From Calothrix sp. NIES-2100 (GTDB lineage Bacteria; Cyanobacteriota; Cyanobacteriia; Cyanobacteriales; Nostocaceae), in NCBI GenBank assembly GCA_002368195.1, contig AP018178.1, positions 5,145,286 through 5,209,285 on the forward strand: 64,000 nucleotides of DNA, given 5' to 3'. Positions within the stretch are counted from its first letter, which is position 1, and each line of letters begins with the position of its first letter. The position numbers and the translations under genes were made by a program. Below are positions 35,360 to 54,601 of this stretch, in pieces. The notes below the pieces were generated by a model. It did no database searches and was not told the DNA's origin. It saw only the letters and a list, made by a program, of their open reading frames with translations.

Positions 35360-36115
35360 TCAATGCATTTTTGTGACAACATCTATGTCATCAGTTTTTA
35401 ATTGCCCATCTTCCATATAAATGATGCGATCCGCAATATCTAGGATACGGTTGTCATGGGTAACTAACAAAATTGTACAGCCTTGTTCTTTAGCTAGCTT
35501 CTGCATCAACTCTACTACATCACGCCCCGATTTTTTATCAAGTGCGGCGGTTGGTTCGTCTGCTAGGACAATTTTCGGATGGCTGACTAAAGCACGGGCG
35601 ATCGCCACTCGTTGCTTTTGTCCCCCAGAAAGGTTTTCGGCGTAGTAATTGACACGTTCTCCCAATCCCACAGTTTCCAGCATGGCGATCGCTTTAGCGT
35701 CAATATCCCGATCAAGATATTGATCGTGTAACTCTAAAGACATCCGCACATTTTCTTTAGCTGTTAAAAAAGTCATCAGGTTATGCGCCTGGAAAATATA
35801 ACCAATCTGGCGACGTAGCTTAGTTAACTGCTGTTTACTAGCAGCGCAGATTTCCTGTCCTAAGATTTTCAGACTACCAGATTGAGCTGATCGCAGTCCA
35901 CCCATGAGAGTTAACAGCGTGGTTTTACCAGATCCTGAGGGTCCGGTCATAATCACAATTTCACCAGCGTTAATCTCTAAATTAATATCAAATAATACTT
36001 GTTTTTTTAGCGTTCCCTCCCCAAAGTAATGATTCAGGTTACTAATATTAATTACTGGTTCTAAAGTTGTTGATGTGGATTCAGGAAACATAAGATTTTC
36101 AGAGTCAATAGTCAA
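35360..36115 (-). CDS. devA: ABC transporter ATP-binding protein, DevA-like
   Basis: Walker A GPSGSGKTT, signature LSGGQKQRVAIARAL, Walker B ILLADEPT. Confidence 0.85.
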   Translation of the reverse strand: MTIDSENLMFPESTSTTLEPVINISNLNHYFGEGTLKKQVLFDINLEINAGEIVIMTGPSGSGKTTLLTLMGGLRSAQSGSLKILGQEICAASKQQLTKLRRQIGYIFQAHNLMTFLTAKENVRMSLELHDQYLDRDIDAKAIAMLETVGLGERVNYYAENLSGGQKQRVAIARALVSHPKIVLADEPTAALDKKSGRDVVELMQKLAKEQGCTILLVTHDNRILDIADRIIYMEDGQLKTDDIDVVTKMH

Positions 36116-36131
36116 TAGTCAACAGTCAAGA

Positions 36132-37298
36132 CTAGAAAATATCTGCTGGGTCAGCAGCGCGGAGTTTACGCATAGCGATCGCCCCAGAAAAACTACACAT
36201 GATAATTGTTAAAATAAATACTTTAAATGCCCGGTCTACCTTCATGGAAATAGGCAACAATGTCGCAGCGTAGGTTAGCTGATATAGTCCCAAAGAGAGG
36301 AAAAATGAGGGTAAAAAACCTAAGATAGCTAAAAATAATGCTTCTTGTAACAGAACTGTGAGTAAATAGCGATCGCTATAACCCATTGCTTTGAGGGTGG
36401 CGTATTCTGGTAGGTGTTCGGAGACATCGGAATAGAGGATTTGGTAAACAATCACAATCCCAACAATGAATCCGACTCCCACACCTAAGCCAAAAATGAA
36501 GCCAATACCAGTACCAGTAGCCCAATAATTTTTTTCAATTTGGGCAAATCCTTCGGTAGTCAGAACTATGACATCATTGGGTAAAATAGCTGCAAGTTGC
36601 GATCGCACTTGTTCCGGATTAGCACCAGGTTTAAGAGTCAGTAAGCCTACCTCAATGCGATCGCTTTGGCGATCAGGGAAAAGTTGCAAAAAGGTAGAAT
36701 CACTAGTAACTACATTTCCATCAGCCGCAAAGGAAGCACCGTTACTAAACACGCCTTTGACATTGATAGCTTTGTTATTTAATTCGGTGGCAAAGTTGCC
36801 TGTTTTCTTGAAGATAGTACCAATATCTCCATATTCCGGCCTACCTGCTTGGTCAAACATGACTTGATATAACTGCTTCAAATCATTTTGATGTTGCTTA
36901 ATCTCCGGGAATAAAAAAGCTGGTTTTGCTGGATCTATACCCCAAACCAAAATGGCGCGATCAAGACGAGTTTCGGGATTTCGCCATTGTCCGGTGCTGA
37001 TGTAAACCGAGTTTACTGATTGCACGCTCTCATGACTTAATGTTTGATATAAGCGTTCACGAGAAAAGCTTTTGACTGAGAATAAAGTTTGAAATTGGGG
37101 ATTAATTAAAACTAAATCTGCCTGTAAATTGCGATGGGGTTGGACGGCTGCATCAAACAGCGCACTTTCAAAACCTAACTGAATAAACATCAGCATATCA
37201 GCAAAGGTAATACCTGCCACTGCTACTGCAAGACGGGTTTTTTCTTTCATTAACTGCCGCCAAGCTAGCGGAGTTTTGCGAAATAATTTTGATAGCAT
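36132..37298 (-). CDS. devC: ABC transporter permease (FtsX-like), DevC-like
   Basis: 388 aa, N-terminal TM, large periplasmic loop, C-terminal 3-TM FtsX region. Confidence 0.8.
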   Translation of the reverse strand: MLSKLFRKTPLAWRQLMKEKTRLAVAVAGITFADMLMFIQLGFESALFDAAVQPHRNLQADLVLINPQFQTLFSVKSFSRERLYQTLSHESVQSVNSVYISTGQWRNPETRLDRAILVWGIDPAKPAFLFPEIKQHQNDLKQLYQVMFDQAGRPEYGDIGTIFKKTGNFATELNNKAINVKGVFSNGASFAADGNVVTSDSTFLQLFPDRQSDRIEVGLLTLKPGANPEQVRSQLAAILPNDVIVLTTEGFAQIEKNYWATGTGIGFIFGLGVGVGFIVGIVIVYQILYSDVSEHLPEYATLKAMGYSDRYLLTVLLQEALFLAILGFLPSFFLSLGLYQLTYAATLLPISMKVDRAFKVFILTIIMCSFSGAIAMRKLRAADPADIF

Positions 37299-37367
37299 AA
37301 GTATTAGTCATTTGTCATTTGTCATTTGTCATTTGTCATTTGTCAACAGTCAACACTTCGGCTTTGC

Positions 37368-38675
37368 TCAGTGACCACGGTCAACAGTCCCCAATTCAAT
37401 CGCTGTTTGTACTTGCAAGTTCGTTAACCCGGAAACGCGCTTGCTATCTTCGGGGTTTAGACGAATTTTTACTTCAATAACTCGACTATCAAGGTTTTCT
37501 CCTGGTTGATTGCTAAAAACGTTTTGTCTATTAACTTGTAAGCCAACCTGGGAAACTTTACCCCTTATTTCTCCAGTAAATGCTTGACCGGTAATTACTG
37601 CTTTTTGTCCCAGTCTTACCTTACTAATGTCAGTTTGATAAACTTCTGCAACTGCAATCATTTGGTCAGTTTGGGCAAAGTCTGCAATACCCGAATCACC
37701 AATTTTTTCACCAGCGCGGTAATGTATTTTGAGAACTTGTCCTGCTGTTGGTGCTTTGATGTATGCTGCTGCTAAATCAGTTTGGGCGTGTTTGAGGGAT
37801 GCGATCGCATTTTCAACTTCTGTTTGAGCTGCGGCTATATCTACGGGACGGACTTCGGCAATACTATTGAGTGTGGCTTTGGCTTCGCTAATTTCTTTGT
37901 TACCAGTGGCGTTAATGCGGTTGAGTGCTACTTTTGCTTCTGCTAGTTGTCTGCTAGCTGTGGTGTTGATGCGGTTGAGAACGGCTTGCGCTTCATCTAG
38001 TTGCTGTTTGGTGGTGTCTACACTCAAACGCCTAGTGTCAAATGCAGAATTAGAAATTGCTCCATCTTTATATAACTGTTGATAACGCAGATATTCTGCT
38101 TGGGCATTGTTGAGTTCGGCTGTCAGTTTTTTAATTGTCGCTTCTTGGGCAATTCTATCACCTTGCCATTGTGCCTCTATGCGGGCGATCGCTTCTTGTT
38201 GACTTTGGCGATCGCCAATCGATTGTGCCTGCAAACGTTCCACTGTTGCTTGCTGTGCTTGAATTTCTCCAGTTTTCGCCCCCGCTTTCACTTGTGCGAG
38301 TTTAGCTTGGGTGACTTGGACTTGTTTTTGCGCTTGGAGTACCGCAGTTTGTAAGCGATCGCGTGCATCTAAAACTGCTATAATTTGTCCGGCTTCGACG
38401 CGATCGCCTTCTTCAACCAGGATTTTCGCAATGCGATCGCCATCTAATGCTAGGGGTGCAGATAACTTAATTACCTCGGCTTCTGGTTGCAGTCTTCCTA
38501 AAGCCGTTACTTTTTGCAAAATTGGCGCAGTTGGTATTTCCTCCGAAGCAGTGCGCCCAACTTGACCAAACTGAGAAATAGCATAAACAGCAATTCCACC
38601 TGTAATCGCAGTAGCAGCAATTCCTAATACAATTAGTCCTCTATTTTTTGGTTTCAATAATAGCCTATAACTCAT
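37368..38675 (-). CDS. devB: Membrane fusion protein (HlyD family), DevB-like
   Basis: N-terminal TM, long coiled coils, beta-barrel C-terminus; devB-devC-devA gene order. Confidence 0.8.
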   Translation of the reverse strand: MSYRLLLKPKNRGLIVLGIAATAITGGIAVYAISQFGQVGRTASEEIPTAPILQKVTALGRLQPEAEVIKLSAPLALDGDRIAKILVEEGDRVEAGQIIAVLDARDRLQTAVLQAQKQVQVTQAKLAQVKAGAKTGEIQAQQATVERLQAQSIGDRQSQQEAIARIEAQWQGDRIAQEATIKKLTAELNNAQAEYLRYQQLYKDGAISNSAFDTRRLSVDTTKQQLDEAQAVLNRINTTASRQLAEAKVALNRINATGNKEISEAKATLNSIAEVRPVDIAAAQTEVENAIASLKHAQTDLAAAYIKAPTAGQVLKIHYRAGEKIGDSGIADFAQTDQMIAVAEVYQTDISKVRLGQKAVITGQAFTGEIRGKVSQVGLQVNRQNVFSNQPGENLDSRVIEVKIRLNPEDSKRVSGLTNLQVQTAIELGTVDRGH

Positions 38676-38783
38676 ATTTCCCCCTCTTTATTAATTTGTC
38701 ATTTGTCATTTGTCATTTGTCATTTGTCAAGAAGGCACTCTTGCAACAGTCAACAGTCAACAGTCTTCCCTAGCCCCTATCCC

Positions 38784-39362
38784 CTATCCCCTCTCTTCAT
38801 CTCGCAAATATGCCGTGAGCATTTTACCTAATAAAGCGCATTGTTCAGTAAAACAAATATTTTCATCACCCCAAAGTTTCTCCAAAATTAAACCATTGAC
38901 GAAACTCAATACAAATGTTGCTAAAACTGAATCTTGAATCCCTAAAAAATCGCAGGCGGCTTGTTGATATCGCTGATTAGCCCGCTTCAAAACACCGTTT
39001 ACCTTTATTTGTTCAGAGTCTTGATGCTGACAAAAATCTACCCAGATGTAAGTCCACTTAATAAAGTAATCTTCGTTTTTTACTAAGTATCTTGCTAATG
39101 CTGCCATTGCCTCTGGTAGTGGTTTTCTCCCACCCAATTCTGCTAAGGCCATCGCCACATCTTGCTGGCTAATTTCTTCTAGTAATTGCTCAAATAAAGC
39201 CTGTTTACTGGGAAAATAATGATACAGCGTCCCCGTTGACACTCCTAAGCCTTGAGCAATTTCCCGCATAGTGATGGCACTGTAGCCTTTTTGGGCAAAT
39301 AAATCGAAGCACTTGCCGAGCAGTTCTTTGCGGTATTGTTCGTGGTCAACAATCTTGGGCAT
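38784..39362 (-). CDS. TetR-family transcriptional regulator
   Basis: HTH ITMREIAQGLGVSTGTLYHYFPSK. Confidence 0.85.
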   Translation of the reverse strand: MPKIVDHEQYRKELLGKCFDLFAQKGYSAITMREIAQGLGVSTGTLYHYFPSKQALFEQLLEEISQQDVAMALAELGGRKPLPEAMAALARYLVKNEDYFIKWTYIWVDFCQHQDSEQIKVNGVLKRANQRYQQAACDFLGIQDSVLATFVLSFVNGLILEKLWGDENICFTEQCALLGKMLTAYLRDEERG

Positions 39363-39640: not shown

Positions 39641-40783
39641 ATGAAATTTTCAGTTTTATTTGGCTCTATACTTTCCCAGATTAAAGGACGACATTGGTGG
39701 TTAGGTATTCTCTTGTGGATAGCTTTGGTTGCTCCAGCGCAAGCATCTGTAATCTTACGCATCGCCATTGAGAGAAACGTTAATCAAGTAAAAGTTGGTA
39801 GTTCGACAACTGCAACAGTCAAGGATGGAACGGGGCGGACTCTCGGACAATTACCAGCGATGAGTTCGTTTTATGCCCAAGCTGTTGGTGGTGGTGTAGC
39901 TTTAGATAAATGGCAATCTGGTTTATTTTGGATTGAGCCGACAGGTAAAGGATTCGTTTATATAGGCGATCGCTGGTTTCGCGGTAGAACTCTGGTTGTA
40001 CCCACAGAAAAAGGCTTAACTGCGGTTAACTGGGTAGATACTGAGGAATATCTCTACAGCGTTATCGGTGGAGAAATGGATGCCCAATGGCCCCAAGAAG
40101 CTTTGAAAGCCCAAGCGATCGCCGCCCGCACTTATGCTTTATACGAACGGGAAAGACAGCGCAGTAACCCGATTTACGATTTAGGTGACAGCCCAGATCG
40201 CTGGCAAATTTATAAAGGTGTCAGCAGTGAAACTCCTACTACCTACGCCGCCGTCGATGCTACCGCCGGACAAGTACTAACTTACCAAAACAAAATTATT
40301 CTCTCAGTCTTCCACGCTTGCTCTGGCGGACATACTGAAAATGTTGAAGATGTTTGGGGTAGCAAAGAGCCTTACCTGCGTGCTGTTCAAGACTACGATC
40401 AAAATATTAAAGAGTGTAACTGGGTGAAAACCTTCTCATCTGGGGAAATTAGTTCTATTTCTGGTGTAGGCAATGTCACAGATATGATTGTGGAGGCTCG
40501 CTCACCGTTCCAAAGTGTGAAAGTCCTGAAAATTATCGGCGATCGCGGTACGAAGACACTACAGGGCGAAGAGGTACGTACTGCACTCAGGCTAAAAAGT
40601 ACCCGCTTTAACGTCAGCAAAGGAGCCGATGGTAGTTTTATTCTACAAGGGCTAGGCTATGGTCACGCCATTGGCATGAGTCAATGGGGAGCGTATAATC
40701 TGGCACGAAGAGGTGCAAACCACCTACAAATTTTGGGACATTATTACCAAGGTGTAGCCCTAACACCAATTAAAGCCAAGTAG
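39641..40783 (+). CDS. SpoIID/LytB-domain protein (amidase enhancer)
   Basis: Signal peptide and the conserved SpoIID region (AQAIAARTYAL, FHACSGGHTE, MSQWGA). Confidence 0.75.
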   Translation: MKFSVLFGSILSQIKGRHWWLGILLWIALVAPAQASVILRIAIERNVNQVKVGSSTTATVKDGTGRTLGQLPAMSSFYAQAVGGGVALDKWQSGLFWIEPTGKGFVYIGDRWFRGRTLVVPTEKGLTAVNWVDTEEYLYSVIGGEMDAQWPQEALKAQAIAARTYALYERERQRSNPIYDLGDSPDRWQIYKGVSSETPTTYAAVDATAGQVLTYQNKIILSVFHACSGGHTENVEDVWGSKEPYLRAVQDYDQNIKECNWVKTFSSGEISSISGVGNVTDMIVEARSPFQSVKVLKIIGDRGTKTLQGEEVRTALRLKSTRFNVSKGADGSFILQGLGYGHAIGMSQWGAYNLARRGANHLQILGHYYQGVALTPIKAK

Positions 40784-40847
40784 CTATCTGAAATTAATTC
40801 CAACTAATCTTGGTGCATGGGTTTTGTGAAGAGCTTAGATCCCCGAC

Positions 40848-40880
40848 TTCTTTGAGAAGTCGGGGATCTAAAACTAGCGG
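40848..40880. repeat. Dispersed palindromic element AGATCCCCGACTTCTTTGAGAAGTCGGGGATCT (copy 3 of 3)
   Basis: Same element as 2868-2900 and 23352-23384. Confidence 0.8.
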
Positions 40881-40928
40881 ATTTTTACAACTTCTACACA
40901 GATTGCTAGAGCAAATCGCCTATCATCC

Positions 40929-41309
40929 CTACCTCAGAAATGTTACCTCTTTCTGATAAAATTCACTCAAATGTATAAAGCATACTCTGGGGTCAATATA
41001 TCTTTGTTCAGCACCTATACGCATTCCGATCGTATTTGTGCATAAACCATATCTGTAAAAAGCTAATTGACACCTTCTGTAGCCTGTCCGCAAAGAATAG
41101 TTATTAGGGTTGCTCCTGAGAGCATTTTCGTACCTTCTACACAGAATAGATGCTTGTTGAGTATTTTGCAGACAGTTAAAATCGCATTCATTCTCGCTAC
41201 CTATCGGTGTTTCTGCAACTGCTATTGAAAAATTACTAAAAATCACCATCGCCGCAGTAGAGCAAACTGTGAAAAAACCAATAAAAATTGTCTCAACTGA
41301 TTTATTCAT
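40929..41309 (-). CDS. Secreted Cys-rich hypothetical protein
   Basis: Signal peptide; 6 Cys; 126 aa. Confidence 0.35.
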   Translation of the reverse strand: MNKSVETIFIGFFTVCSTAAMVIFSNFSIAVAETPIGSENECDFNCLQNTQQASILCRRYENALRSNPNNYSLRTGYRRCQLAFYRYGLCTNTIGMRIGAEQRYIDPRVCFIHLSEFYQKEVTFLR

Positions 41310-41440
41310 ATTTATCCTTACCCAGTGTTGTATTTATATAACTTACGCAAGTGTCACAAACAAGTCGTCTTTTTTATTTGTAGTCAGTGGGTCTATTCCT
41401 TATTTCTTTGGTTAAAGTCCTGACTACGAACTTATAGGAA

Positions 41441-41478
41441 TTCCTCGTAGGGGCACAAACAATCTTGTGCCCCGATCG
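41441..41478 (-). terminator. Hairpin GGGGCACAA-acaatc-TTGTGCCCC downstream of the minus-strand 43428..41507 gene pair
   Basis: 9-bp perfect stem read directly. Confidence 0.4.
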
Positions 41479-41506
41479 GTGTCCCTCATTAAAAAAGAGA
41501 AATTAG

Positions 41507-42076
41507 CTAAACTCCTTCATCAACAATCTGTCTAAATTTGTTAACAAGTTTGTCTTTCATTTCGATAAAATCGTGAATTTCTTTGTCTAAGTCTTGCTCC
41601 ATTTTTTTCTGAAGGATTGAATTAGTCATTTCTTGCAATCTTTGAGTTTTCTTTTCAATCGCAGTAATGAATTTATCGAAAATTCGGTCTAATTCCTCTT
41701 GGAGTTCCTGTGCTTTTCGCATCAAGAAACTAGCTGTTTCTGCTCGACCCGCAGCTTTGGCTTTGACTAAATACTGATTGCAAGTTTCTCGTAAGGCTTG
41801 GACATGGGTTTCTCGCACCATTGCTAAGGCTTTTTTGCGAAACTCAAACTCAGTTTTAATAATTTCGAGTTCGCCCATTTTTGCTGCACGTTGTACTGGA
41901 TCGGGGAACAATTTTGTGAGGAATGTCTCACGTTTTGCCATATTATTATCAACAACGATTTCGGCATAACGTGCGACTGCTTCAACGCTGGAAGATTTGG
42001 CGATTTGGTTATCTGCTGAAACCCTGGTCAGCGAATTATTACTTTTATCAATGTAATCAGACATAATTAACCTCAT
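41507..42076 (-). CDS. All-helical hypothetical protein, partner of the DUF4407-like membrane protein
   Basis: 189 aa, coiled-coil-rich; 75 nt downstream of 42151..43428 on the same strand. Confidence 0.45.
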   Translation of the reverse strand: MRLIMSDYIDKSNNSLTRVSADNQIAKSSSVEAVARYAEIVVDNNMAKRETFLTKLFPDPVQRAAKMGELEIIKTEFEFRKKALAMVRETHVQALRETCNQYLVKAKAAGRAETASFLMRKAQELQEELDRIFDKFITAIEKKTQRLQEMTNSILQKKMEQDLDKEIHDFIEMKDKLVNKFRQIVDEGV

Positions 42077-42150
42077 TTAAATTGTGTTACTTGCATTCAT
42101 CTGGAACTGATTGCTAATTTGGTGGAGGTCTTGCCTCTGTAGGAGATAAT

Positions 42151-43428
42151 TTAATTACTTTCATAGTCCTGTCCAAACTTTTTCAAAGGTTCTAGGTCTT
42201 TAAATAATCGGTCTACTTCTGCTTCTGTTACAACATGAGCAACTTTATTTCTCAGTTTGTTGTTGAGAATATCTGCTTTAATTTGGTTCAACTGTTCCTC
42301 AATTTCCACACCAGTCATCTTGATTTGACTAAATTGTTTCATCATTTCATTTTCGATATTTGTTGCAATTAATTTAACTATATTTTTCCGAATCTCAGCT
42401 AAATCAGCGCTTTGAGTTGTTTCCTCTAAGACGACTGTAAATTGATGCGTGAGGAATTCTTCTATTCTTTCCCGTGTGTTTGCTCTGACTGCTTCGCGGA
42501 CTTTGCGTTTATTCTCGATTTGTTCGTCAATCTCTTGTTTAGCATCCGCTAAATGTTGCGTGTGGTAATATATACTTTTACCTTCTATAGCTTCAATAGC
42601 TGCATCGTAAGCACTGTATTCTGACATCAATTTCCCTAAGATCGGAGAAATTTCTATCATGACAAACAGTAATGTAATAAATAAGTTAATTTTGTCAATT
42701 ATTGGGTCTGTTTCAGCTAGCTTTTCTAGTATCTCAAGCTGCTTTGATAATCCTATATGTGGCAGTTGGGGATTGCTGCGAAGGTTTTTACTTTTATCTA
42801 ATTGTTGTTGCTTTTTTTTGAGAGTAGATTTGATGTCATCAATTTCCGCTGCGGTACGTGGAGCCTGAGCTTTCTTTTCTGGATTAGCAGAAATTAACTG
42901 TTCTTTATAGTATTTGTCTTTTTCTTGTAATTCACTATGTAAAGATTTAATTTCACTATCTATTTCTTGAATTTCTCCTTGAAATTTAGTTGTTTCTTCT
43001 TTTAAGATTACTTCCTTAATATTTGACTCGAACATCTTTAATTCGAGTGGCTTACTGATACCAACTGCTAAAACACCAGCCAATGCTAAACGTGGTGTTA
43101 ATACTTTGAGTTGTCCGAAGAAATGATTTCTCTTTTTTTTAGCGCTTAAAATGAAGAATCTATCTAAGTTATAAATGTTTAACCCCCAGAAACAGCCTAA
43201 TCCAACTGCAACTGGAACTGAAGCAAATACGATATACAATGCGTAGAAAGCTGACAACGCAGATGTGGAAGCGGTAAGGAAAAGCATTATGGCGATCGCT
43301 TCTTGCTTACCTCTTTCGGTTTGGCAATCATTCCGTGATAGAATTTCTGGGTTTGCACCTGCACAATGCCACCACAACCGTCGTAGTATGCTAACGGATG
43401 ATTTTTGCTGTTTCTCAGGCTTGCTCAT
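42151..43428 (-). CDS. Membrane-anchored coiled-coil protein (DUF4407-like architecture)
   Basis: Two TM helices near the N-terminus, a long coiled coil, a further TM pair, then a C-terminal coiled coil. Confidence 0.5.
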   Translation of the reverse strand: MSKPEKQQKSSVSILRRLWWHCAGANPEILSRNDCQTERGKQEAIAIMLFLTASTSALSAFYALYIVFASVPVAVGLGCFWGLNIYNLDRFFILSAKKKRNHFFGQLKVLTPRLALAGVLAVGISKPLELKMFESNIKEVILKEETTKFQGEIQEIDSEIKSLHSELQEKDKYYKEQLISANPEKKAQAPRTAAEIDDIKSTLKKKQQQLDKSKNLRSNPQLPHIGLSKQLEILEKLAETDPIIDKINLFITLLFVMIEISPILGKLMSEYSAYDAAIEAIEGKSIYYHTQHLADAKQEIDEQIENKRKVREAVRANTRERIEEFLTHQFTVVLEETTQSADLAEIRKNIVKLIATNIENEMMKQFSQIKMTGVEIEEQLNQIKADILNNKLRNKVAHVVTEAEVDRLFKDLEPLKKFGQDYESN

Positions 43429-43685
43429 CTCGCACCTCTATGGCTTGTAGAAGACTGATTGTTTATCTGAGTAACATTCAATCTTCTCGATCCGTGTCTT
43501 TAGCCTGAAGTTATATGAGTTCAGCCTGAGTTACATGAGTTCAGTCTTAATTCTGTCACAGGAAAGAAAATAAGTGTATTGATCAATACCTTCGCCAAAT
43601 CGAAACATGCCACAATGCGTAGATTGGGTTGAGGAACGAAACCCAACCTACAAAAAAATGCTGAAGGTATTGTTGGTGAAAGCAA

Positions 43686-45197
43686 CTACAAATTCTGAAA
43701 ATATTGACGGTATAACTCAGAACTTAATGTTATTTCATCACCTTGCAGTTTTACTAATCCAAGTGCGCGTAATTTATACCTAACTTCGTTATTAAATACT
43801 GGCGAATTAGCAGAAAAAAGTAACTCTTTCATTGCTGCTTCTAATTGAGGCTGTTGTTTCAAAATTGACTCTATACGACGGAGATAATTACTGAAAATTC
43901 CAGATGTAGTGGATGCTGTTTGCAAGAGTTGAGATATAGTTGTCTCTTGATTGGCAATTTTATACAGAGCTAAACGGATTAAAAATGGTTGTCCTCCTAC
44001 CATTTCTATCAATCTTTCAATCTCTGCATCACTCAAATTGAGTTGGTGTCGTTGAGCTAAATCTTTAACTTGCTCTTGTGTAAATTCTGGTAGTTCCACT
44101 ACTAAACCAACGTTGAATGGTGATTGATGAATATTCATCGGGACGTAAGCTTCGGTAGAGTGTACTATCACCAGTCGTAGCTTTGTCCAAATATCCCGGC
44201 GTTTTGCTTCTTCGTGGAGAGAACGCAGTAAACCAAAAAAGTCTTTATAAATTTTTGGGTATTCAAATACTTTATCTACTTCTTCTAATGCCAAAGTTAA
44301 CCTTTGAGGGATTTCTGGAAACAGATATTGCTCGAAATACTCCATGCAAGTTTTCATGCTACCGATACGTCGAGCTAAGTTCCAATGTTCATCTAATTGT
44401 GACAGCAGCTTTGTTTGTAGTTCCTGATTTTCTTTTGTTATTTCTAGAATTAGATTGTCGCAAAACCAGCGTAAAAACGTGTTTAATTCACCGAAAAGTT
44501 CAGACTCTGCAAGTCGAAAGTCTATAGTTACACTCATGTCACCTTGACTGTTAGCTTGATGAAGAATTTTTACTAACAGCGAAGATTTGCCCGTTTGTTG
44601 GGGTGCTTTAATACGAATTAGAGAACCAGGTTTGGAAATTTCCTCGTAACAACGTTGTTCGATGGGGAAACGCTGAATATAAAAGTAAGAATTTAGGGGT
44701 ACTTCTCCTTCTGGGTATTCGAGGGAATCAGCAGGGGTGTTCTCAGCCGCTATATCTAGCCTGCTAACACTTAACGCTTTGCAAATTTCATCAAAGTTAT
44801 TGCGATCGATAGCTTTACCTCTAAAAAAGCTGTTGATTGTTGACTCAGACAGTCCCAAATGTCCTGCTAAATCTGTCTGACTAATGAAGCCATTTCGCAA
44901 AAGGGCTTTCTTCAAATCATCAATACATTCTTTCTTTACGTATAATGACCTTTTCGGGGAATTGAGAGAGGAATTATCAGTTGTTATTGCTATATCTTGT
45001 CTGTTAATATTTAACGCTTCACAAATTTTATCAAAGTTTTCTTTATCAATAGCTGTCCCTCGGAAAAAGCTGTCAATTGTTGCTTTGGAGAGCTTCAAAG
45101 CTTCAGCTAATTTTGAGTTACTAGCAAAGTTACTTTGCAGCAGGGTATTTTTCACATCATCAATACGCTCAGTACGTACTCTGAATGACCTTCCCAT
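43686..45197 (-). CDS. Tandem HTH-like N-domains fused to an AAA-like (Pfam AAA_35-type) NTPase domain
   Basis: Two roughly 75-aa repeats (...LKLSKATIDSFFRGTAIDKENFDKICEALNI...) then a P-loop QQTGKSSLLVKIL. Paralogous to the N-terminus of 45336..48944. Confidence 0.6.
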   Translation of the reverse strand: MGRSFRVRTERIDDVKNTLLQSNFASNSKLAEALKLSKATIDSFFRGTAIDKENFDKICEALNINRQDIAITTDNSSLNSPKRSLYVKKECIDDLKKALLRNGFISQTDLAGHLGLSESTINSFFRGKAIDRNNFDEICKALSVSRLDIAAENTPADSLEYPEGEVPLNSYFYIQRFPIEQRCYEEISKPGSLIRIKAPQQTGKSSLLVKILHQANSQGDMSVTIDFRLAESELFGELNTFLRWFCDNLILEITKENQELQTKLLSQLDEHWNLARRIGSMKTCMEYFEQYLFPEIPQRLTLALEEVDKVFEYPKIYKDFFGLLRSLHEEAKRRDIWTKLRLVIVHSTEAYVPMNIHQSPFNVGLVVELPEFTQEQVKDLAQRHQLNLSDAEIERLIEMVGGQPFLIRLALYKIANQETTISQLLQTASTTSGIFSNYLRRIESILKQQPQLEAAMKELLFSANSPVFNNEVRYKLRALGLVKLQGDEITLSSELYRQYFQNL

Positions 45198-45335
45198 AGC
45201 TAATAATAAAAAATTTACTAAATGGAGATAAAAACTAAGTATTTGTATAGTACAGTAAAATACAAATCAATGTGAACTCAAATTTCTCCAAACTAAACTC
45301 ACGTTGAGTCATGTTTTGATGCGATTAGCCACTTC

Positions 45336-48300
45336 TTGTATATCGGTGATGAAATCATGACTGGAAGCTATGAGTATAAAACTGGTGGAAGTTTAGGAGA
45401 AGCTGCTCCCAGTTACGTTGTGCGACAAGCGGATGATGAGTTTTATCGCTGGTTAAAAGCTGGTGAGTTTTGTTATATTTTTAACTCTCGGCAAATGGGT
45501 AAGACGAGCTTGCTAGTCCGTGCAATGAAACGACTGGAAGCTGAGGGCTATGCCTGTATAACAATCGATGCTACAGAGCAGGGTAGTCAAGAAGTTGATA
45601 TTGAAATGTGGTATGGCGGAATTGCTTACACTTTAGTAACTCGTTTAAAGGTTCTTGATATCAGAGAGTTTGATGCATGGTGGGATGAACGGATGAAAAT
45701 CTCTCCCGTACAGCGTTTAGGGAGTTTTATTGAAGAAATATTGTTGCCCAAATTTACTAAAAATATCATTATTTCTATTGACGAAATAGACACTTTTATC
45801 AATTTAAATTTTCCCACAGATGATTTTTTTGCCCTCATTAGAAGCTTTTATGAAAAACGCAATCTCAATCCAGATTTTCACAGGTTAACTTTTGCTTTAG
45901 TTGGCGTAGCTACACCCTCGGATTTAATTCAAGACGAACGACGCACACCTTTTAATATTGGTAAAGCAATTGAATTGACTGGGTTTAAGTTAGAAGAAAC
46001 CCATCCCCTCGCCCAGGGTTTAGCTACCAAAACTAATAATCCAATGGTAGTAATGGAAGCAATATTAAGCTGGACGGGAGGACAACCTTTTTTAACCCAA
46101 AAAGTCTGCTCGTTAATTTTTAATGCTGATTTTGCAATTCCTAATTATGAGGTTACACGGTGGGTAGAAGAATTGATACAAGCAAATATAATTTATAACT
46201 GGGAAGCCCAAGATGAACCAGAGCATTTAAAGACGATACGCAACTGGATATTAGGAGGGGAACAAGTTGCTGGGCGTTGGTTGGGATGGTATCAGCAAAT
46301 TTTGCAAAACGGTGATATTGCAATTGACGATATGAAATTTCGCCTGACTGGTTTGGTGGTGAAACAGCAGGGCAGGTGGAAGGTTTATAACCAAATTTAT
46401 GCTCATGTTTTTAATTTAAATTGGGTTGAAAAAGAGTTATCTAAACTGCGCCCCTATGCTGAAAGTTTTAATGCATGGAAGAGTAGTAACTTTCAAGATA
46501 ATTCGCAGCTATTAAGGGGAAAAGAGTTAGAGAATGTCTCAAAGTGGGCGACTGATAAAAGTTTGAGTGATGAGGATTATCGATTTTTATCTACCAGCCA
46601 GAACTATGAATTGAAGCAAGTGCAACAGAAGACTCAGCGACAGATTCGATTAGGTTCTGGGTTTTTGGTTGTAGTGGCTATTGTTGCAGGAACCCTAGCT
46701 ATTATTGCAAATAAACAACGTTTAGAAGCCCAAGAAGGTATAAATCTTGAAAAAACGGGATCTGCTGCTTTACGCCAATTTGACTCTGAACCTTTAAAAG
46801 CTTTAGTCACAGCGATGGAGACAGCACAAAAATTAAAAGAAATAGTCAAAGATAACCGCCCTTTAGAAAAATATCCTGCTACTAGTCCTATTGTCACTTT
46901 GCAAACTATGCTGGATGATATTCATGAAAGCAATCAACTTGAAGGGCATGAGGGCGAAGTCTATAGTGCCACATTTAGTCCTAATGGACAGCGTATAATT
47001 TCTGCATCGGCTGACCACACTGTTAAAGTTTGGAATAGCCAAGGTAAGTGGCTTTTTGACCTCAAAGGACATCAAGGAAAAGTCTACCGTGCCAGTTTTA
47101 GTCCTGATGGACAGCGTATTGTTACTGCATCTGAAGATAAAACTGCTAAAGTTTGGAATAGTCAAGGTCAATGGCTTTTTGACCTCAAAGGACATCAGGG
47201 TCAAGTCTATGCTGCTAGCTTTAGTCCTGATGGACAGCGTATTGTTACTGCATCTGAAGATAGAACAGCTAAAGTGTGGAATAGCCAAGGTCAGTGGCTT
47301 TTTGACCTCAAAGGACATCAGGGTCAAGTCTATAGTGCCAACTTTAGTCGTGATGGACAGCGTATTGTTACTGCATCTGAAGATAGAACAGCTAAAGTGT
47401 GGAATAGCCAAGGTCAATTGCTTTTTGACCTGAAAGAACATCAGGCTCCAATCTACAGTGCCAGCTTTAGTCCTAATGGACAGCGTATTGTTACAGCATC
47501 TGAAGATAATGAGGTAAATATTTGGGAAATTAAAAATAATTCACTAAATCCCCATCCTGACCCTCTATTTATTAAACCGTTAAGCAATTATAATGTTATG
47601 AATGCTAATTTTAGTCCAGATGGAAGACGCATTGTTGTTACTTTTAATAACGGCAATGCTGAAATTTATCCTTTACTAGATATTGAACACCCTGATGATT
47701 TTATTGGTAATTTTAAGAGCTTTTCAAGCCCATTAAATATCCTTAAAGGTCATCAAAAAGCTGTCAATTATGCCAGTTACAGTCCTGATGGACAGCGTAT
47801 GGTTACTGCATCTAGTGATAAAAGTGTTAGGGTTTGGAACATAAAAGAAAAAAACAACATTTACCTCAAGAACAAAAATATCAGCTCCCTTGCATTCGGT
47901 AGAGTAGACCGTATAGTTGTTGGATTTAAAGACGGTAAAGCCCAAATATTAGACGTAAAAGGGAACTTAGTAGCTGAACTCAAAGGTCATCAAAAGGATG
48001 TTAACAAAACTGTTTTAAGTGACGACGGACAGTATGCTCTCACTATCTCAAGAGATGCTGTAAAATTATGGGACATGAAGGGCAATTTATTAGCCGATAT
48101 CAAAGAAAATATAAAGGATGTCACAAATGGTACAGTTAGCGATAAAGGAAAGTATATTATCACCACCATTCCAGATCAAGGAATTATCAAGATATGGGAT
48201 AGTAAAGGTAATTTGCTAGCTGACTTTAAAGGGCATGAAAAAAATATTAACAATTTCAAGTTTAGCCCTGACGAAAAACACATAATTACAGTATCGGATG

Positions 48301-48944
48301 ACCACATAGCAAAAGTATGGGATATCAAGGGTAAATTACTAACTGAGCTTAAGGGACATCAAGATGCAGTCACCAGTGCTATATTTAGTCCTGATGGACA
48401 GCGCATTGTCACCACTTCACGCGATCAAACGGCAAAAATTTGGGATATGAAGGGTAAATTACTAGCTGACCTCAAAGGATATCAGGATATAGTTACCCTT
48501 GCTGAATTTAGCTCCGATGGACAGCACATCGTTACCACATCAAACGAGCGTATTGCTAAAATATGGGATATTAAGGGGAACTTAGTGGCTGATCTTAAAG
48601 GACATCAGGATATAGTCACCCGTGCCAGTTTTAGCCCTGATGGACAGCGTATTGTTACTACTTCAGCTGACTTGACTGCTAAGTTATGGGATTTAAATGG
48701 CATTTTGCTAGCAGATTTTAAAGAATATCATAAGTCAAATGTTGCTGGTGCGCGCTTTATTGATGATGGACAGCGTATTGTGACTGTATCTGTTGAAAGG
48801 GGGTTTGATGGAGATCAAAGAGTTAGCATTGGAACATTTTTTGTTGGAGACTTGGATAACTTACTAACCCGTGGCTGCAACTGGCTGCAAGATTATCTTT
48901 CCACCCATCCTGAAGTGCGGGAAAGGTTAAAGGTGTGTAAGTAA
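45336..48944 (+). CDS. AAA-like NTPase / transmembrane / WD40-repeat protein (1202 aa)
   Basis: P-loop RQMGKTSLLVRAM, internal TM (FLVVVAIVAGTLAIIA), then about 14 WD40 repeats (GHxxxVxxAxFSPDGQRIVTAS.D.TAKVW). Confidence 0.8.
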   Translation: MYIGDEIMTGSYEYKTGGSLGEAAPSYVVRQADDEFYRWLKAGEFCYIFNSRQMGKTSLLVRAMKRLEAEGYACITIDATEQGSQEVDIEMWYGGIAYTLVTRLKVLDIREFDAWWDERMKISPVQRLGSFIEEILLPKFTKNIIISIDEIDTFINLNFPTDDFFALIRSFYEKRNLNPDFHRLTFALVGVATPSDLIQDERRTPFNIGKAIELTGFKLEETHPLAQGLATKTNNPMVVMEAILSWTGGQPFLTQKVCSLIFNADFAIPNYEVTRWVEELIQANIIYNWEAQDEPEHLKTIRNWILGGEQVAGRWLGWYQQILQNGDIAIDDMKFRLTGLVVKQQGRWKVYNQIYAHVFNLNWVEKELSKLRPYAESFNAWKSSNFQDNSQLLRGKELENVSKWATDKSLSDEDYRFLSTSQNYELKQVQQKTQRQIRLGSGFLVVVAIVAGTLAIIANKQRLEAQEGINLEKTGSAALRQFDSEPLKALVTAMETAQKLKEIVKDNRPLEKYPATSPIVTLQTMLDDIHESNQLEGHEGEVYSATFSPNGQRIISASADHTVKVWNSQGKWLFDLKGHQGKVYRASFSPDGQRIVTASEDKTAKVWNSQGQWLFDLKGHQGQVYAASFSPDGQRIVTASEDRTAKVWNSQGQWLFDLKGHQGQVYSANFSRDGQRIVTASEDRTAKVWNSQGQLLFDLKEHQAPIYSASFSPNGQRIVTASEDNEVNIWEIKNNSLNPHPDPLFIKPLSNYNVMNANFSPDGRRIVVTFNNGNAEIYPLLDIEHPDDFIGNFKSFSSPLNILKGHQKAVNYASYSPDGQRMVTASSDKSVRVWNIKEKNNIYLKNKNISSLAFGRVDRIVVGFKDGKAQILDVKGNLVAELKGHQKDVNKTVLSDDGQYALTISRDAVKLWDMKGNLLADIKENIKDVTNGTVSDKGKYIITTIPDQGIIKIWDSKGNLLADFKGHEKNINNFKFSPDEKHIITVSDDHIAKVWDIKGKLLTELKGHQDAVTSAIFSPDGQRIVTTSRDQTAKIWDMKGKLLADLKGYQDIVTLAEFSSDGQHIVTTSNERIAKIWDIKGNLVADLKGHQDIVTRASFSPDGQRIVTTSADLTAKLWDLNGILLADFKEYHKSNVAGARFIDDGQRIVTVSVERGFDGDQRVSIGTFFVGDLDNLLTRGCNWLQDYLSTHPEVRERLKVCK

Positions 48945-49035
48945 GAAAATTGAGGGGTATTAAGGTGCGATCTCAGTACCAGTTTTCATGCACTTCAATT
49001 AGGTTATTGTGGCTATGCGTTAGCGCAGCTTCAAT

Positions 49036-49210
49036 TAGCGATCTCTCTTTTGTTTGAGAGGATAAAGTGCGATCGCCCAGCTTCACCATGCGATCGCCTT
49101 TTTGTTTGAGTTGATGGAGTGCGATCGCCCAGCTTCATCAAGCGATCGCCTTTTTGTTTGAGTTGATGGAGTGTGATCACCCAGCTTCATCAAGCGATCG
49201 CTTTTTTCAG
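49036..49210. repeat. Tandem ~58-bp repeat x3 containing HIP1 sites (..TTTGTTTGAGTTGATGGAGTGCGATCGCCCAGCTTCATCAAGCGATCGCCTTT..)
   Basis: Three head-to-tail copies read directly downstream of the WD40 gene. Confidence 0.7.
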
Positions 49211-49276
49211 CCACCGAGATACAGTTAACATTAAAAAGCATTCCACACTTACAAAGTTCTTGAATCTCAAGTAATT

Positions 49277-49828
49277 ATGCTGAAACTTTACGGTGGTACT
49301 CGTACTCGTGCGTCAATCATCGAGTGGTATTTACAAGAATTGGGAATTCCCTACGAATTTGTACTCCTAGATATGCAATCAGGTGAACATCTTCAGCCTG
49401 AGTATTTGAAACTTAACCCAATGGGGAAAGTTCCAGCATTAGTGGATGGGGACTTCCAGATTTGGGAATCAGGGGCAATTTTGTTGTATCTTGCCGATAA
49501 ATATGGCAAAACACCACTTTCACCTGAGGAACGTGGTGTTTTGTCGCAGTGGGTATTTTTTGCCAATGCTACTCTGGGGCCTGGAATTTTTGGGGAAGAG
49601 AATCGAAAACGGGAAATGACTCGTTTGTTAACTCCCTTGAATAACATTTTTGAACAGCAACCTTTTTTATTGGGTAATGAATTTAGTGTTGCTGATGTAG
49701 CTGTGGGATCTATCCTAAATTACTTTTTGCTTTTGCTGAAGCTAGATTTGAGTTCTTATCCAGCCGTATTGGATTATATCAAACGCATATCTGAACGTCC
49801 GGCATTTTCCATTGGTAAAAGAGCTTAA
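49277..49828 (+). CDS. Glutathione S-transferase
   Basis: MLKLYGG..., VPALVDGDFQIWESGAILLYLADKYGK GST N-domain. Confidence 0.75.
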   Translation: MLKLYGGTRTRASIIEWYLQELGIPYEFVLLDMQSGEHLQPEYLKLNPMGKVPALVDGDFQIWESGAILLYLADKYGKTPLSPEERGVLSQWVFFANATLGPGIFGEENRKREMTRLLTPLNNIFEQQPFLLGNEFSVADVAVGSILNYFLLLLKLDLSSYPAVLDYIKRISERPAFSIGKRA

Positions 49829-50704
49829 CTAAATCGTTTCATTGACATAAATCCCCACGCTTCAAGGGTGGGGATCGCACTACCTATTTCCATCAACTTC
49901 AATTAGCGATCGCCCATAACACTACCGAATTTACCTAACCAAAATTAGCGATCGCATCGACAAAACATCATACCTGACGACAAGCCGAACACTTTAACTC
50001 TCCAGTGCTGTTAACCACGACTGCAAATCAGCCAAGCTGATAAAATCAAGTAAAGCTTCGCTCCAATCTTCGAGAACAGGTAAGGGCAAACTAAAAATTT
50101 GCGATCGCACTTCTGGAAATATTTCTCCAAAGCGCTTAGTTAACTTTCGGGTAATCTAATTAGCTGTTGCTTCTTGTCTTCCTTCTTCCTTGATTTCCCG
50201 GTAAACTCTCGTTTCTTTCAGTGTTATTCCTAGTTCTCCATTCTATAATTCTATGCACCCTCATATAAGTAGAACGTCGTGAATATTTATAATCGGGATT
50301 AGGCAGGAGGCAGAAGGAAAGAGGGTTTTATCTCTTTTACCTTTCTTAACATACATTGATTTTTCCCAACGACTTACTTAAAATCAGTATAAGTATTTAC
50401 TATGTGTATCCTATTTGATTTATCTGAAGCTAGGTACACTTTTATTCTTATTTCCCTGTTAAGATTTCCCTATTCCCTGTTTCCTCCCTAAGCAAACAAT
50501 TTCCCAAATAAAACCGGATTGCTATATAAAACCTTGTTTTTTGGATTTATTTGGCAAAAAGGAAATTGGTATTAATTTAAATAAGTTTAAAAGCTTAAAT
50601 TATGTTATGGTTAGAAAAAAGAGAAATATTTTTGGTCAAGGTAAGGACTATATAGACGCTATCCAAATATAAATTTCAACATCCTCTATATGGGGAAATA
50701 TGCT

Positions 50705-50959
50705 ATGTCAGTTTATATTGGTAATTTATCCCATGAAATTGAAGATGAAGACATCAGACAAGTCTTTTTAATGTATGGGTCTGTGAGGAAAATTCTAGTA
50801 TCTACGAATCAAAAAACAGGTGAGAAGAGGGGATTTGCAGTTGTAGAAATGGAAACAGACGCCCAAGAAGTAGCAGCAATTAATGGATTAAGAGGTGCTG
50901 AATGGATGGGTTATAGCCTGAAGGTGAATAGAGCTAAGACAATTGTAGACGTAGCTTAA
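50705..50959 (+). CDS. rbp: RRM-type RNA-binding protein (short, no Gly tail)
   Basis: MSVYIGNLS RNP2 and KRGFAVVEM RNP1-like motifs; likely start at second ATG 50705. Confidence 0.7.
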   Translation: MSVYIGNLSHEIEDEDIRQVFLMYGSVRKILVSTNQKTGEKRGFAVVEMETDAQEVAAINGLRGAEWMGYSLKVNRAKTIVDVA

Positions 50960-51495: not shown

Positions 51496-51804
51496 ATGTC
51501 AGTTTATGTAGGCAATCTTTCTTACGAAGTTACAGAAGAGAGTTTGAATGCTGTGTTTGCAGAATATGGTTCTGTCAAGCGGGTTCAGCTACCTACCGAT
51601 CGGGAAACCGGTCGTGTACGCGGCTTTGGTTTTGTGGAAATGGGTACTGATGCAGAAGAAACTGCCGCCATTGAAGCGCTTGATGGTGCAGAGTGGATGG
51701 GAAGAGACCTAAAAGTAAATAAGGCTAAGCCCAAGGAAGATAGAGGAGGTTCGTTTGGTGGTGGTGGAAACCGTAGCAATTACGGTGGACGTAACCGTTA
51801 CTAA
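51496..51804 (+). CDS. rbp: RRM-type RNA-binding protein with Gly-rich C-terminus
   Basis: MSVYVGNLSYEVT RNP2, RGFGFVEM RNP1, GGSFGGGGNRSNYGGRNRY tail. Confidence 0.85.
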   Translation: MSVYVGNLSYEVTEESLNAVFAEYGSVKRVQLPTDRETGRVRGFGFVEMGTDAEETAAIEALDGAEWMGRDLKVNKAKPKEDRGGSFGGGGNRSNYGGRNRY

Positions 51805-54301: not shown

Positions 54302-54601
54302 TTAGTAACGGTTGCGAAAGCCGGAGTTATTTCGGTTCCCACCAAAGGAACCTCTGTCTTCTCTGGGTCTAGCTTTGTTCACTTTCAAGTTACGTCCCAT
54401 CCACTCAGCACCATCAAGAGCTTCAATGGCAGCATTTTCTTCTGCATCTGTACCCATTTCTACAAAAGCAAAACCACGCAAACGACCTGTTTCACGATCA
54501 GTGGGTAGCGAAATCTGCTTTACAGAACCATATTCTGCAAAAACACTATTTAAAGTCTCTTGTGTAACTTCATATGAGAGATTACCTACGTAAAGTGACA
54601 T
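54302..54601 (-). CDS. rbp: RRM-type RNA-binding protein with Gly-rich C-terminus
   Basis: MSLYVGNLSYEVT, RGFAFVEM, GSFGGNRNNSGFRNRY. Confidence 0.85.
   Translation of the reverse strand: MSLYVGNLSYEVTQETLNSVFAEYGSVKQISLPTDRETGRLRGFAFVEMGTDAEENAAIEALDGAEWMGRNLKVNKARPREDRGSFGGNRNNSGFRNRY

Follow-up and report, generated by a model that had tools for sequence, protein, structure and literature searches.

Introduction

Signal transduction ATPases with numerous domains (STAND), among them Apaf-1/NB-ARC, NACHT, Avs and bNACHT proteins, are recognized by a single tripartite polypeptide in which effector, nucleotide-binding oligomerization domain (NOD) and sensor are combined. STAND-type transcription factors such as MalT/LAL, AfsR/SARP and GutR likewise have a helix-turn-helix (HTH) domain of the LuxR or SARP type, the NOD and a TPR sensor in one cytoplasmic polypeptide, and plant paired nucleotide-binding leucine-rich repeat receptors (NLRs) such as RGA4/RGA5 and RRS1/RPS4 are encoded by head-to-head paralogous NOD genes, one for sensing and the other for output. 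Systems of extracytoplasmic function (ECF) sigma factors, DUF1822 proteins and caspases have been interpreted as conflict systems (Kaur et al., 2021; PMC8195603). The subject of this work is a locus at positions 40929-48944 of a 64,000-nt stretch of Calothrix sp. NIES-2100 (assembly GCA_002368195.1, contig AP018178.1, 5,145,286-5,209,285, forward strand; the whole stretch is called the window and positions refer to it), which encodes two NTPases of the AAA_35 family, called here the sensor and the regulator, and a cassette of a DUF4407 membrane protein with a small partner protein.

By sequence comparison it was demonstrated that sensor and regulator are a conserved, co-diverging pair, that the gene slot behind the regulator is variable and that phased AACTCA repeats occur in both promoter regions flanking the regulator. 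With a chance that we put at about even, two paralogous NTPases form at this locus a split, STAND-like sensor/regulator unit that signals outside-in and is coupled here to a mobile DUF4407 membrane cassette. In the literature searched the AAA_35 pair is undescribed and no function is assigned to DUF4407: the search retrieved no functional study of AAA_35/PF14516 or DUF4407/PF14362, the term AAA_35 being swamped by accession-like strings and the papers returned for DUF4407 dealing with unrelated topics, the names AAA_35, PF14516, DUF4407 and PF14362 do not occur in Kaur et al. (2020), and a survey of cyanobacterial sigma factors gives AAA_35 merely as an accessory domain (PMC11119718).

Results and discussion

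According to open reading frame (ORF) listing and translation, five co-located genes of 126, 189, 425 and 503 (all on the minus strand) and 1202 aa (plus strand) reside in the interval. Four of them had been described, at the same coordinates, in an initial annotation of this DNA; the signal-peptide protein of 126 aa (40929-41309) is added here, and two start codons are probably to be corrected, to 45357 and 42064. The database entries NIES2100_41940 and NIES2100_41950 (Calothrix sp. NIES-2100) correspond with 100% identity to the proteins of 425 and 503 aa, respectively. The features on which the argument builds are:

45336-48944, plus strand: sensor NTPase, 1202 aa, with AAA_35, one transmembrane (TM) helix and WD40
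45198-45335, no strand: divergent intergenic region with two phased AACTCA sites
43686-45197, minus strand: regulator NTPase, 503 aa, two HTH domains and AAA_35 (HTH-NTPase)
43619-43651, minus strand: dispersed-repeat hairpin, directly 3' of the HTH-NTPase stop codon, from sequence
43516-43541, minus strand: AACTCA array, three exact repeats and a degenerate AACTTC, candidate operator
42151-43428, minus strand: DUF4407 membrane/coiled-coil protein, 425 aa, from Pfam
41507-42076, minus strand: small partner protein, 189 aa as listed, probably 185 aa

A Pfam check agreed with the initial annotation on the domains AAA_35, WD40 and DUF4407. AAA_35 (PF14516, gathering score 27 bits) is found in the regulator with E=3.6e-127 (424.2 bits) and in the sensor with E=3.6e-32 (111.9 bits), and the two NTPase domains are by sequence paralogous, with 25% identity over 251 aa (E=3e-18), as the shared P-loop domain had already indicated to the first annotators. 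The tandem HTH domains that they placed on the minus-strand NTPase were recovered as XRE-type matches to HTH_26 (52.9 bits, cut-off 22) and HTH_3 (45.9 bits, cut-off 23) in two stretches each; the two units lie at residues 1-76 and 81-156, with the domains bounded at 1-73 and 83-152, and their first ~70 residues align without gaps and are about half identical. Walker B reads ALEEVD in the regulator and SIDEID in the sensor. The Walker A motif GK[ST]SL and an acidic Walker B are invariant in both NTPase subfamilies, as are G241, G242 and P244 of a GG.P[FLY]L motif (alignment A2).

In the sensor, AAA_35 (approximately residues 1-400) and a linker are followed by one strong TM helix (residues 439-457, Kyte-Doolittle 2.48) and by a WD40 region (E=4e-113) that parses to about 14-15 blades, or two propellers, which bears out the single TM helix and the number of blades annotated initially. 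Tandem DNA repeats of 123 bp with 73-87% matches encode the blades at 46942-47509 and 48309-48730, and the almost identical protein sequences of blades 2-4 suggest a recent repeat expansion or homogenization in the sensor domain. Because all aligned homologues begin with MTG.YEYK (alignment A2), the true start of the sensor is likely the ATG at 45357 (MTGSYEYK). As the NTPase must be cytoplasmic and one TM helix intervenes, the WD40 propellers are predicted to lie across the membrane, outside the cytoplasm, and the sensor would therefore not be an Avs-like intracellular receptor of phage proteins.

A genome scan with the 503-aa protein gave 22 cyanobacterial loci (numbered, like other loci compared here, with the prefix L), 21 of which have enough flanking sequence, L011 being too short to judge. 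In 18 of these 21 loci a second AAA_35 gene adjoins the HTH-AAA_35 homologue, divergently (head-to-head) in 16 and co-oriented in two (L026, L027), whereby frameshifted or truncated copies were recovered by tblastn; it is absent from L024, L025 and the degraded L028. The N-terminal ~470 aa of this second protein match the sensor NTPase of the window, with phmmer E-values of 1e-116 to 1e-199 in the divergent loci, and the pairwise identities of the NTPase domains of both genes correlate with r=0.96 (13 loci, 78 locus pairs), which is consistent with co-inheritance. Judged from these sequences the pair is widespread in filamentous cyanobacteria, and the HTH-NTPase has 2,833 relatives according to a word-indexed search, concentrated in multicellular cyanobacteria and for the most part ~440 aa long with one HTH. 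The partnerless HTH-AAA_35 gene of L024 stands beside a class II lanthipeptide synthetase (DUF4135+LANC_like, 1120 aa; L024:272-6291) and four tandem paralogous small ORFs of 108-123 aa, which may be precursor peptides.

The N-terminus of the first NTPase carries one HTH, two HTHs (window), an HTH together with TIR_2 (P0100) or, in place of the HTH, Guanylate_cyc+TIR_2 (L026, L027), and the C-terminal repeats of the second NTPase are WD40 or TPR across the loci; an output-type domain is therefore always found on the first and a repeat sensor always on the second NTPase. All 12 cyanobacterial second NTPases examined, with WD40 and TPR alike, possess a single strong TM helix after an Arg/Lys-rich stretch. 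In L026:710-5683 and L027:2996-7952, both from an uncultured bacterium, a 701-aa protein of Guanylate_cyc+TIR_2+AAA_35 is followed by a co-oriented AAA_35 protein of 931-937 aa with no TM helix and without a Pfam match in its C-terminal ~650 aa, by sequence a fully cytoplasmic, TIR-armed version of the pair.

In the AlphaFold2 (AF2) model of the regulator (pLDDT 80.6, pTM 0.46), the AAA_35 domain has at its C-terminus a beta-hairpin and helices that would be consistent with a winged helix. Matches of the model in Foldseek were the archaeal Walker ATPases 2qen (4.8e-7) and 2fna (1.4e-5), ORC2/Cdc6 1w5s (1e-4) and the NRC1 NB-ARC domain (4e-4), besides RPP1, Sr35 and Avs5, with a Foldseek probability of 1.0 to 2qen, 2fna, ORC2, NRC1 NB-ARC and RPP1, but TM-scores of 0.2-0.35 on the multi-domain model. 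On the basis of the model the AAA_35 family is probably ORC/Cdc6-STAND-like AAA+, within STAND or in a sister AAA+ group. When the PDB was searched by sequence, with the 503-aa protein, profile A2 (NTPase) and profile A4 (partner) as queries, only P-loop or coiled-coil noise was returned; RecA concatemers owed their scores to summed 8-bit matches, and ORC2 attained only E~0.1.

The gene directly 3' of the HTH-NTPase varies among loci and encodes PPC-like secreted proteins of 154-168 aa, unknown secreted proteins of ~170-220 aa, a Trypsin_2 lipoprotein or a secreted protein of 114 aa; in the window, DUF4407 and its partner occupy this slot. Common to the secreted-protein genes is a conserved leader of ~110 nt (nhmmer E=1e-12 to 1e-27), which continues into the codons of the signal peptide and reads …TAACTCAAT…TTGTACTCAAGT…GATGGAATTGTCGAGTTCAACA…ATG; it is located at L009:11349-11464, L008:2666-2778, L022:7040-7151 and in 12 more loci. 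Promoter, leader and signal peptide thereby resemble a constant unit, followed by an exchangeable part for the mature protein. DUF4407 of L022 also has this leader in front of it (E=8e-7), as has, with a weak match, the DUF4407 fragment of L007 (E=0.1). Extra copies in the same loci (L015:4104-4215, L021:3480-3596 and L021:17987-18062) suggest a small regulon.

In an unbiased count AACTCA/ACTCAA was the top enriched 6-mer in both classes of intergenic region, with 23 occurrences against 1.2 expected in the divergent regions and 9 against 1.0 in the regions downstream. The divergent regions of other loci contain 11-nt-phased arrays of 3-5 sites, at -102, -91, -80, -69 and -48; that of the window has AACTCA at 45275-45280 and 45296-45301, 21 nt apart and pointing to the sensor gene. 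On the other flank of the regulator, at 43516-43541 on the minus strand, AACTCA is found at -113, -104 and -93 from the DUF4407 start and the degenerate AACTTC at -84. This is the only cluster of at least three AACTCA in the 64-kb window (shuffles give 0.006 per window), and phased-pair patterns occur in the window solely at 43516-43541 and 45275-45301 (0.04-0.12 expected). AACTCA-like arrays stand 5' of DUF4407 in the AAA_35-linked loci (window, L022), and none was found 5' of DUF4407 in L001, L003, L004, L034, L035 and L037, where the cassette is unlinked to AAA_35, so that the cis-element tracks the regulator and not the cassette. Of all findings, this tracking speaks most strongly for a probable control of DUF4407 in this genome by the HTH-NTPase or by some factor tied to the pair. 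HTH domains and AACTCA arrays together point to a transcriptional output rather than to a directly triggered abortive-infection effector.

The 425-aa protein matches DUF4407 (PF14362) over residues 34-280 with E=3.4e-41 and 141.9 bits (gathering score 31.3). Of the four TM helices in the initial annotation, hydropathy retrieves three to four, with a TM1/TM2 block at 44-75, TM4 at 243-265 and an amphipathic third helix at ~103-130 that stays below the threshold; the AF2 model is all-helical (pLDDT 74). Invariant in alignment A1 are NLDR after TM2, KPLELK after TM3 and E259/P262/K266 in TM4, with D89, R90, E259 and K266 as invariant charged residues of the TM helices. The cyanobacterial subfamily adds a C-terminal extension of ~100 aa and is devoid of the segment EA.GT.G..GP.YK of Bacteroidota-type members. 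A word-indexed search of 5.8 billion proteins returned only six sequences with at least 48% identity to the DUF4407 of the window, a subfamily which is, by this measure, very rare.

No TM helix by hydropathy and no Pfam, NCBIfam or PHROG family was found for the 189-aa partner, which is accordingly predicted to be soluble; its designation as helical derives from the initial annotation's reading and from composition. Its true start is likely at 42064 (MSDYID, 185 aa), as in homologues. The three closest DUF4407 orthologues on informative contigs (L001, L003, L004; 55-59% identity) are each directly followed by a protein of 185-211 aa that is 74-89% identical to the 189-aa protein, and the partner, which also adjoins DUF4407 in L022, L034, L035 and L037, is adjacent in every locus with an intact DUF4407 of this subfamily; no ~185-aa partner accompanies the Bacteroidota-type DUF4407 genes examined. 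A profile search with the partner found 282 cluster representatives, with no Pfam family, and a metagenome scan added one new, short locus only. From these sequences DUF4407 and the ~185-aa protein are a real, separable two-gene module, with the partner obligate for this subfamily.

The cassette is found in diverse company. Upstream of it in L001-L004 and L034 are a sigma70_r4-like protein of ~530 aa and DUF1822, with or without CHAT; in L035 it adjoins a Pkinase/VWA/PP2C/TerY_C operon, the L036 locus contains a Zeta toxin and CHAT-CHASE2, and in L037:1986-12489 a 546-aa DUF4407 and the partner are co-oriented with a 738-aa unknown protein, DUF2281, Peptidase_M48, Lipase_3 and two dynamin-like genes, a set that may serve membrane remodelling. 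In L036:9291-9960 remnants of DUF4407 lie upstream of an intact partner gene, and in Rhizonema (L007:5946-6236, minus strand) a fragment of 96 aa is located, with leader remnants, just downstream of the sensor gene; in view of these degraded DUF4407 genes the cassette has evidently been gained and lost. Distant DUF4407 genes are located directly behind an ECF sigma + DUF6768 pair (L029), directly behind a PLDc_2 gene (L030) or alone among housekeeping genes. A scan of viral contigs (IMG/VR) produced eight distant relatives (L041-L048) with 24-29% identity and no partner on contigs of 75-673 kb, seven of which, at 158-673 kb, may be prophage-bearing or misclassified; a phage-borne DUF4407 family was discarded on account of these weak matches.

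The initial annotation had read the NTPases, the membrane protein and its partner as one candidate locus. The four genes together do not form a single conserved system; the NTPase pair (18 of 21 loci) and the combination of DUF4407 and partner are each conserved by themselves. Most cassettes are found behind sigma-like and DUF1822 genes, in part with CHAT, or in other contexts, and most pairs have a secreted-protein gene downstream. Of the 22 pair loci (the window and 21 related ones), only three have a DUF4407 gene close to the pair.

Could an independent mobile cassette with its own regulation have come to lie by chance, or in mere synteny, beside an unrelated NTPase pair? The cassette indeed occurs in at least seven contexts without an AAA_35 gene (L001, L003, L004, L034, L035, L036, L037), its position relative to the pair differs among the window, L022 and L007, and a 257-nt spacer with a dispersed-repeat hairpin separates it from the regulator gene. 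The hairpin, GTAGGTTGGGTTTCGTTCCTCAACCCAATCTAC, follows just after the regulator stop codon and has a similar counterpart, GTAGGTTGGGTGGAGGAACGG, 3' of the homologous gene in L021; the repeat at 43619-43651 reads GTAGGTTGGGT…AACCCAA.CTAC, is of the same type as L021:11240-11270 (Calothrix NIES-4105) and represents a possible transcript end or insertion scar. Mere adjacency is nevertheless improbable in our estimate, as this rare subfamily, or a fragment of it, is found less than 4 kb from an AAA_35 pair in three different genera, as the array 5' of DUF4407 is the pair's own promoter signature and is absent from cassette copies elsewhere, and as the DUF4407 of L022 is preceded by the leader of other output genes.

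The initial annotation had further likened the locus to a STAND-like abortive-infection module. Spelled out, this antiviral reading would have the WD40 NTPase sense phage and the HTH-NTPase act as switch or co-regulator, with DUF4407 and partner as a membrane-disrupting suicide effector. The relation of the NTPase fold to NB-ARC and Avs5, family members with the conflict-type N-terminal domains TIR_2 or cyclase+TIR and a variable output slot that resembles effector swapping would fit, as would the company of the cassette or its distant relatives: ECF-sigma-like/DUF1822/CHAT systems, which are conflict systems according to PMC8195603, the Pkinase/VWA/PP2C/TerY_C operon (L035), the Zeta toxin (L036) and the PLDc_2 gene directly in front of a distant DUF4407. 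The sensor repeats are, however, predicted to be extracytoplasmic, unlike those of characterized Avs and bNACHT sensors; the proteins usually encoded in the output slot are exported, via Sec or as lipoproteins; and distant DUF4407 genes also stand alone among housekeeping genes. Moreover, none of the system models of PADLOC-DB v2, including those for Avs, bNACHT and PDC, was meaningfully matched by the five locus proteins, the sole matches being HTH-only (PDC-M69A, control protein), of the WD40 repeats to HEAT-ARM_XIII and to BrxC with 12 bits, with none for DUF4407; NCBIfam and PHROGs gave no system-level match either, and the window holds no defence island. The annotation's statement that no known named system fits thus agrees with the defence-database check, while its abortive-infection proposal does not sit well with outward WD40 repeats, as predicted, and with the transcriptional output to which HTH and AACTCA point, and we consider it unlikely. 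A conflict role is plausible from the TIR/cyclase variants and the link of the cassette with caspase-type systems; a specifically antiviral role is conjecture.

With the same signalling logic, the output could instead be protective. DUF4407 and partner would then not be a toxin but serve in envelope stress or membrane maintenance, as a Psp/ESCRT-III-like or dynamin-associated module whose induction follows the detection of damage by the periplasmic sensor. The position directly behind the ECF sigma + DUF6768 pair in L029, the M48 peptidase, Lipase_3 and two dynamin-like genes co-oriented with the cassette in L037 and the solitary distant copies among housekeeping genes favour such a stress module. 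The invariant charged TM residues D89, R90, E259 and K266 are no less compatible with a channel or pore, and they speak for an effector, as do the conflict-type genes found around the cassette; Foldseek against the PDB revealed nothing significant for DUF4407 that would speak for a protective module, to which we assign a low probability.

In the split sensor/regulator unit that we prefer, the WD40 propellers would be exposed to the periplasm or the thylakoid lumen, where an extracytoplasmic ligand would bind to them and alter the nucleotide state in the cytoplasmic NTPase domain of the sensor; candidate triggers are phage, predator, kin or envelope damage. The sensor NTPase domain would then hetero-oligomerize with, or release, the paralogous HTH-NTPase, which, when multimerized, could bind the helically phased AACTCA sites, adjacent direct repeats to which the tandem HTH of the regulator would be suited. 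Binding would change how strongly the sensor gene and the DUF4407/partner operon are transcribed, and the products of this operon may act on the membrane by permeabilizing or remodelling it.

Several points weigh against this mechanism. Sensor topology, DNA binding and expression effects are all predictions. XRE-type HTH proteins usually bind inverted repeats, so that AACTCA could be the site of a different factor. Instead of an operator, the shared leader could represent an RNA element of an undescribed family; no Rfam RNA family was detected in the window at 40000-49500. A promoter scan of the window remained at chance level, the Foldseek comparison of the DUF4407 model with the PDB yielded no specific functional match, and species phylogeny could partly account for the co-divergence of the pair at r=0.96. 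As to the coupling with the cassette, the few pair loci with DUF4407 nearby (3 of 22) count against it, as do the location of DUF4407 beyond the sensor gene, not 3' of the regulator, in L022 and L007, the 257-nt spacer with its repeat hairpin, and the full ~110-nt leader, which was not detectable 5' of the DUF4407 of the window.

Two further features border the cassette:

41450-41473, minus strand: GC-rich 9-bp hairpin, 34 nt past the partner stop codon, from sequence
40929-41309, minus strand: signal-peptide-like, Cys-containing protein of 126 aa

The hairpin, annotated initially as a closing terminator, consists of GGGGCACAA/TTGTGCCCC and is followed by TACGAGGAATTCC; it is present, but has no T-run, and the terminator scan, with hairpin plus T-tract as the mark of an intrinsic terminator, did not call it. 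The 126-aa protein contains a hydrophobic, signal-peptide-like N-terminus (residues 7-31, by hydropathy) and several cysteines, belongs to no Pfam, PADLOC or NCBIfam family and is preceded by no AACTCA sites; none of the related loci contains a homologue. Its gene is co-oriented with the cassette, of which its membership is uncertain; the idea that it is the 'native' output gene displaced by the cassette was set aside, as its upstream region is without AACTCA sites or leader and no homologue is found in the other loci. A hairpin CCCCGACTTCT…GAAGTCGGGG lies at ~40836-40860, 3' of this gene.

The surroundings of the locus are ordinary neighbours without a defence island. At 35360-39362 (minus strand) lies an operon for a tripartite exporter of MacB type (ABC_tran, FtsX/MacB_PCD, HlyD), together with a TetR regulator; a SpoIID-domain protein follows at 39641-40783 (plus strand), and GST and RRM proteins are further neighbours; among the annotated window genes at 35-54 kb there is no sigma, DUF1822 or CHAT gene. 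Three small paralogous genes are clustered within 4 kb at 50690-50959 (plus), 51496-51804 (plus) and 54302-54601 (minus), of which the two scanned encode RRM_1 RNA-binding proteins and the third was grouped by BLAST clustering only.

A wider proposal, which we offer tentatively, is that AAA_35 pairs are an undescribed class of split transmembrane NLR-like receptors, which would correspond in bacteria to the head-to-head sensor/executor NLR pairs of plants. A WD40/TPR NOD facing the periplasm would activate a paralogous cytoplasmic NOD whose swappable N-terminal domain (HTH, TIR, cyclase-TIR) sets the output. With an HTH in this place, phased AACTCA promoters would be driven and, through them, exchangeable effectors that are exported or reside in the membrane, including a new two-protein membrane effector of DUF4407 and the ~185-aa protein that is shared with caspase/ECF-sigma conflict systems. 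If true, STAND/NLR-type signalling in bacteria would be extended by a genetically paired sensor and executor NOD, by extracytoplasmic sensing and by a transcriptional output instead of direct killing. With 2,833 HTH-AAA_35 relatives the family is large, and one mechanistic study would annotate thousands of genes; the AACTCA arrays render the regulatory claim directly testable. DUF4407 and the unnamed ~185-aa family would for the first time be placed in a functional context, that of a cassette combined with various regulatory front-ends.

Comparison with known systems

With STAND NTPases (Apaf-1/NB-ARC, NACHT, Avs, bNACHT) the pair has in common Walker A and B, a motif of GxP type and, as modelled, probably an AAA+ core of the ORC/Cdc6 lineage that ends in a putative helical/winged-helix part, and likewise WD40 or TPR sensor repeats and swappable N-terminal output domains including TIR. 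Unlike in the single tripartite polypeptide of those proteins, the functions are split over adjacent genes in the window and in 18 loci, into HTH/TIR-NOD and NOD-TM-repeats, with the sensor repeats beyond the TM helix; moreover, the closest solved folds are archaeal PF01637-type ATPases and not NB-ARC, and no Avs or bNACHT model of PADLOC matches.

Plant paired NLRs resemble the pair in the head-to-head arrangement of NOD paralogues with sensing and output modules on separate members. Homology is, however, limited to the NOD fold, and the cyanobacterial pair differs by a predicted DNA-binding output and a transmembrane sensor, its hetero-complex being putative. MalT/LAL, AfsR/SARP and GutR share the NTP-driven oligomerization switch with an HTH binding repeated promoter sites, as is proposed here; in contrast to them, the HTH of the regulator is N-terminal and of XRE type and the sensor is a separate membrane protein.

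The ECF sigma-DUF1822-EACC2/caspase (CHAT) systems (PMC8195603) are, similarly, regulatory modules with transcriptional output in multicellular cyanobacteria. The window is, at 35-54 kb, without these genes and has the AAA_35 pair in their place, with a different cis-element. In L001, L003, L004 and L034 the DUF4407 cassette is located directly downstream of such a system, in the same position as it has behind the HTH-NTPase here.

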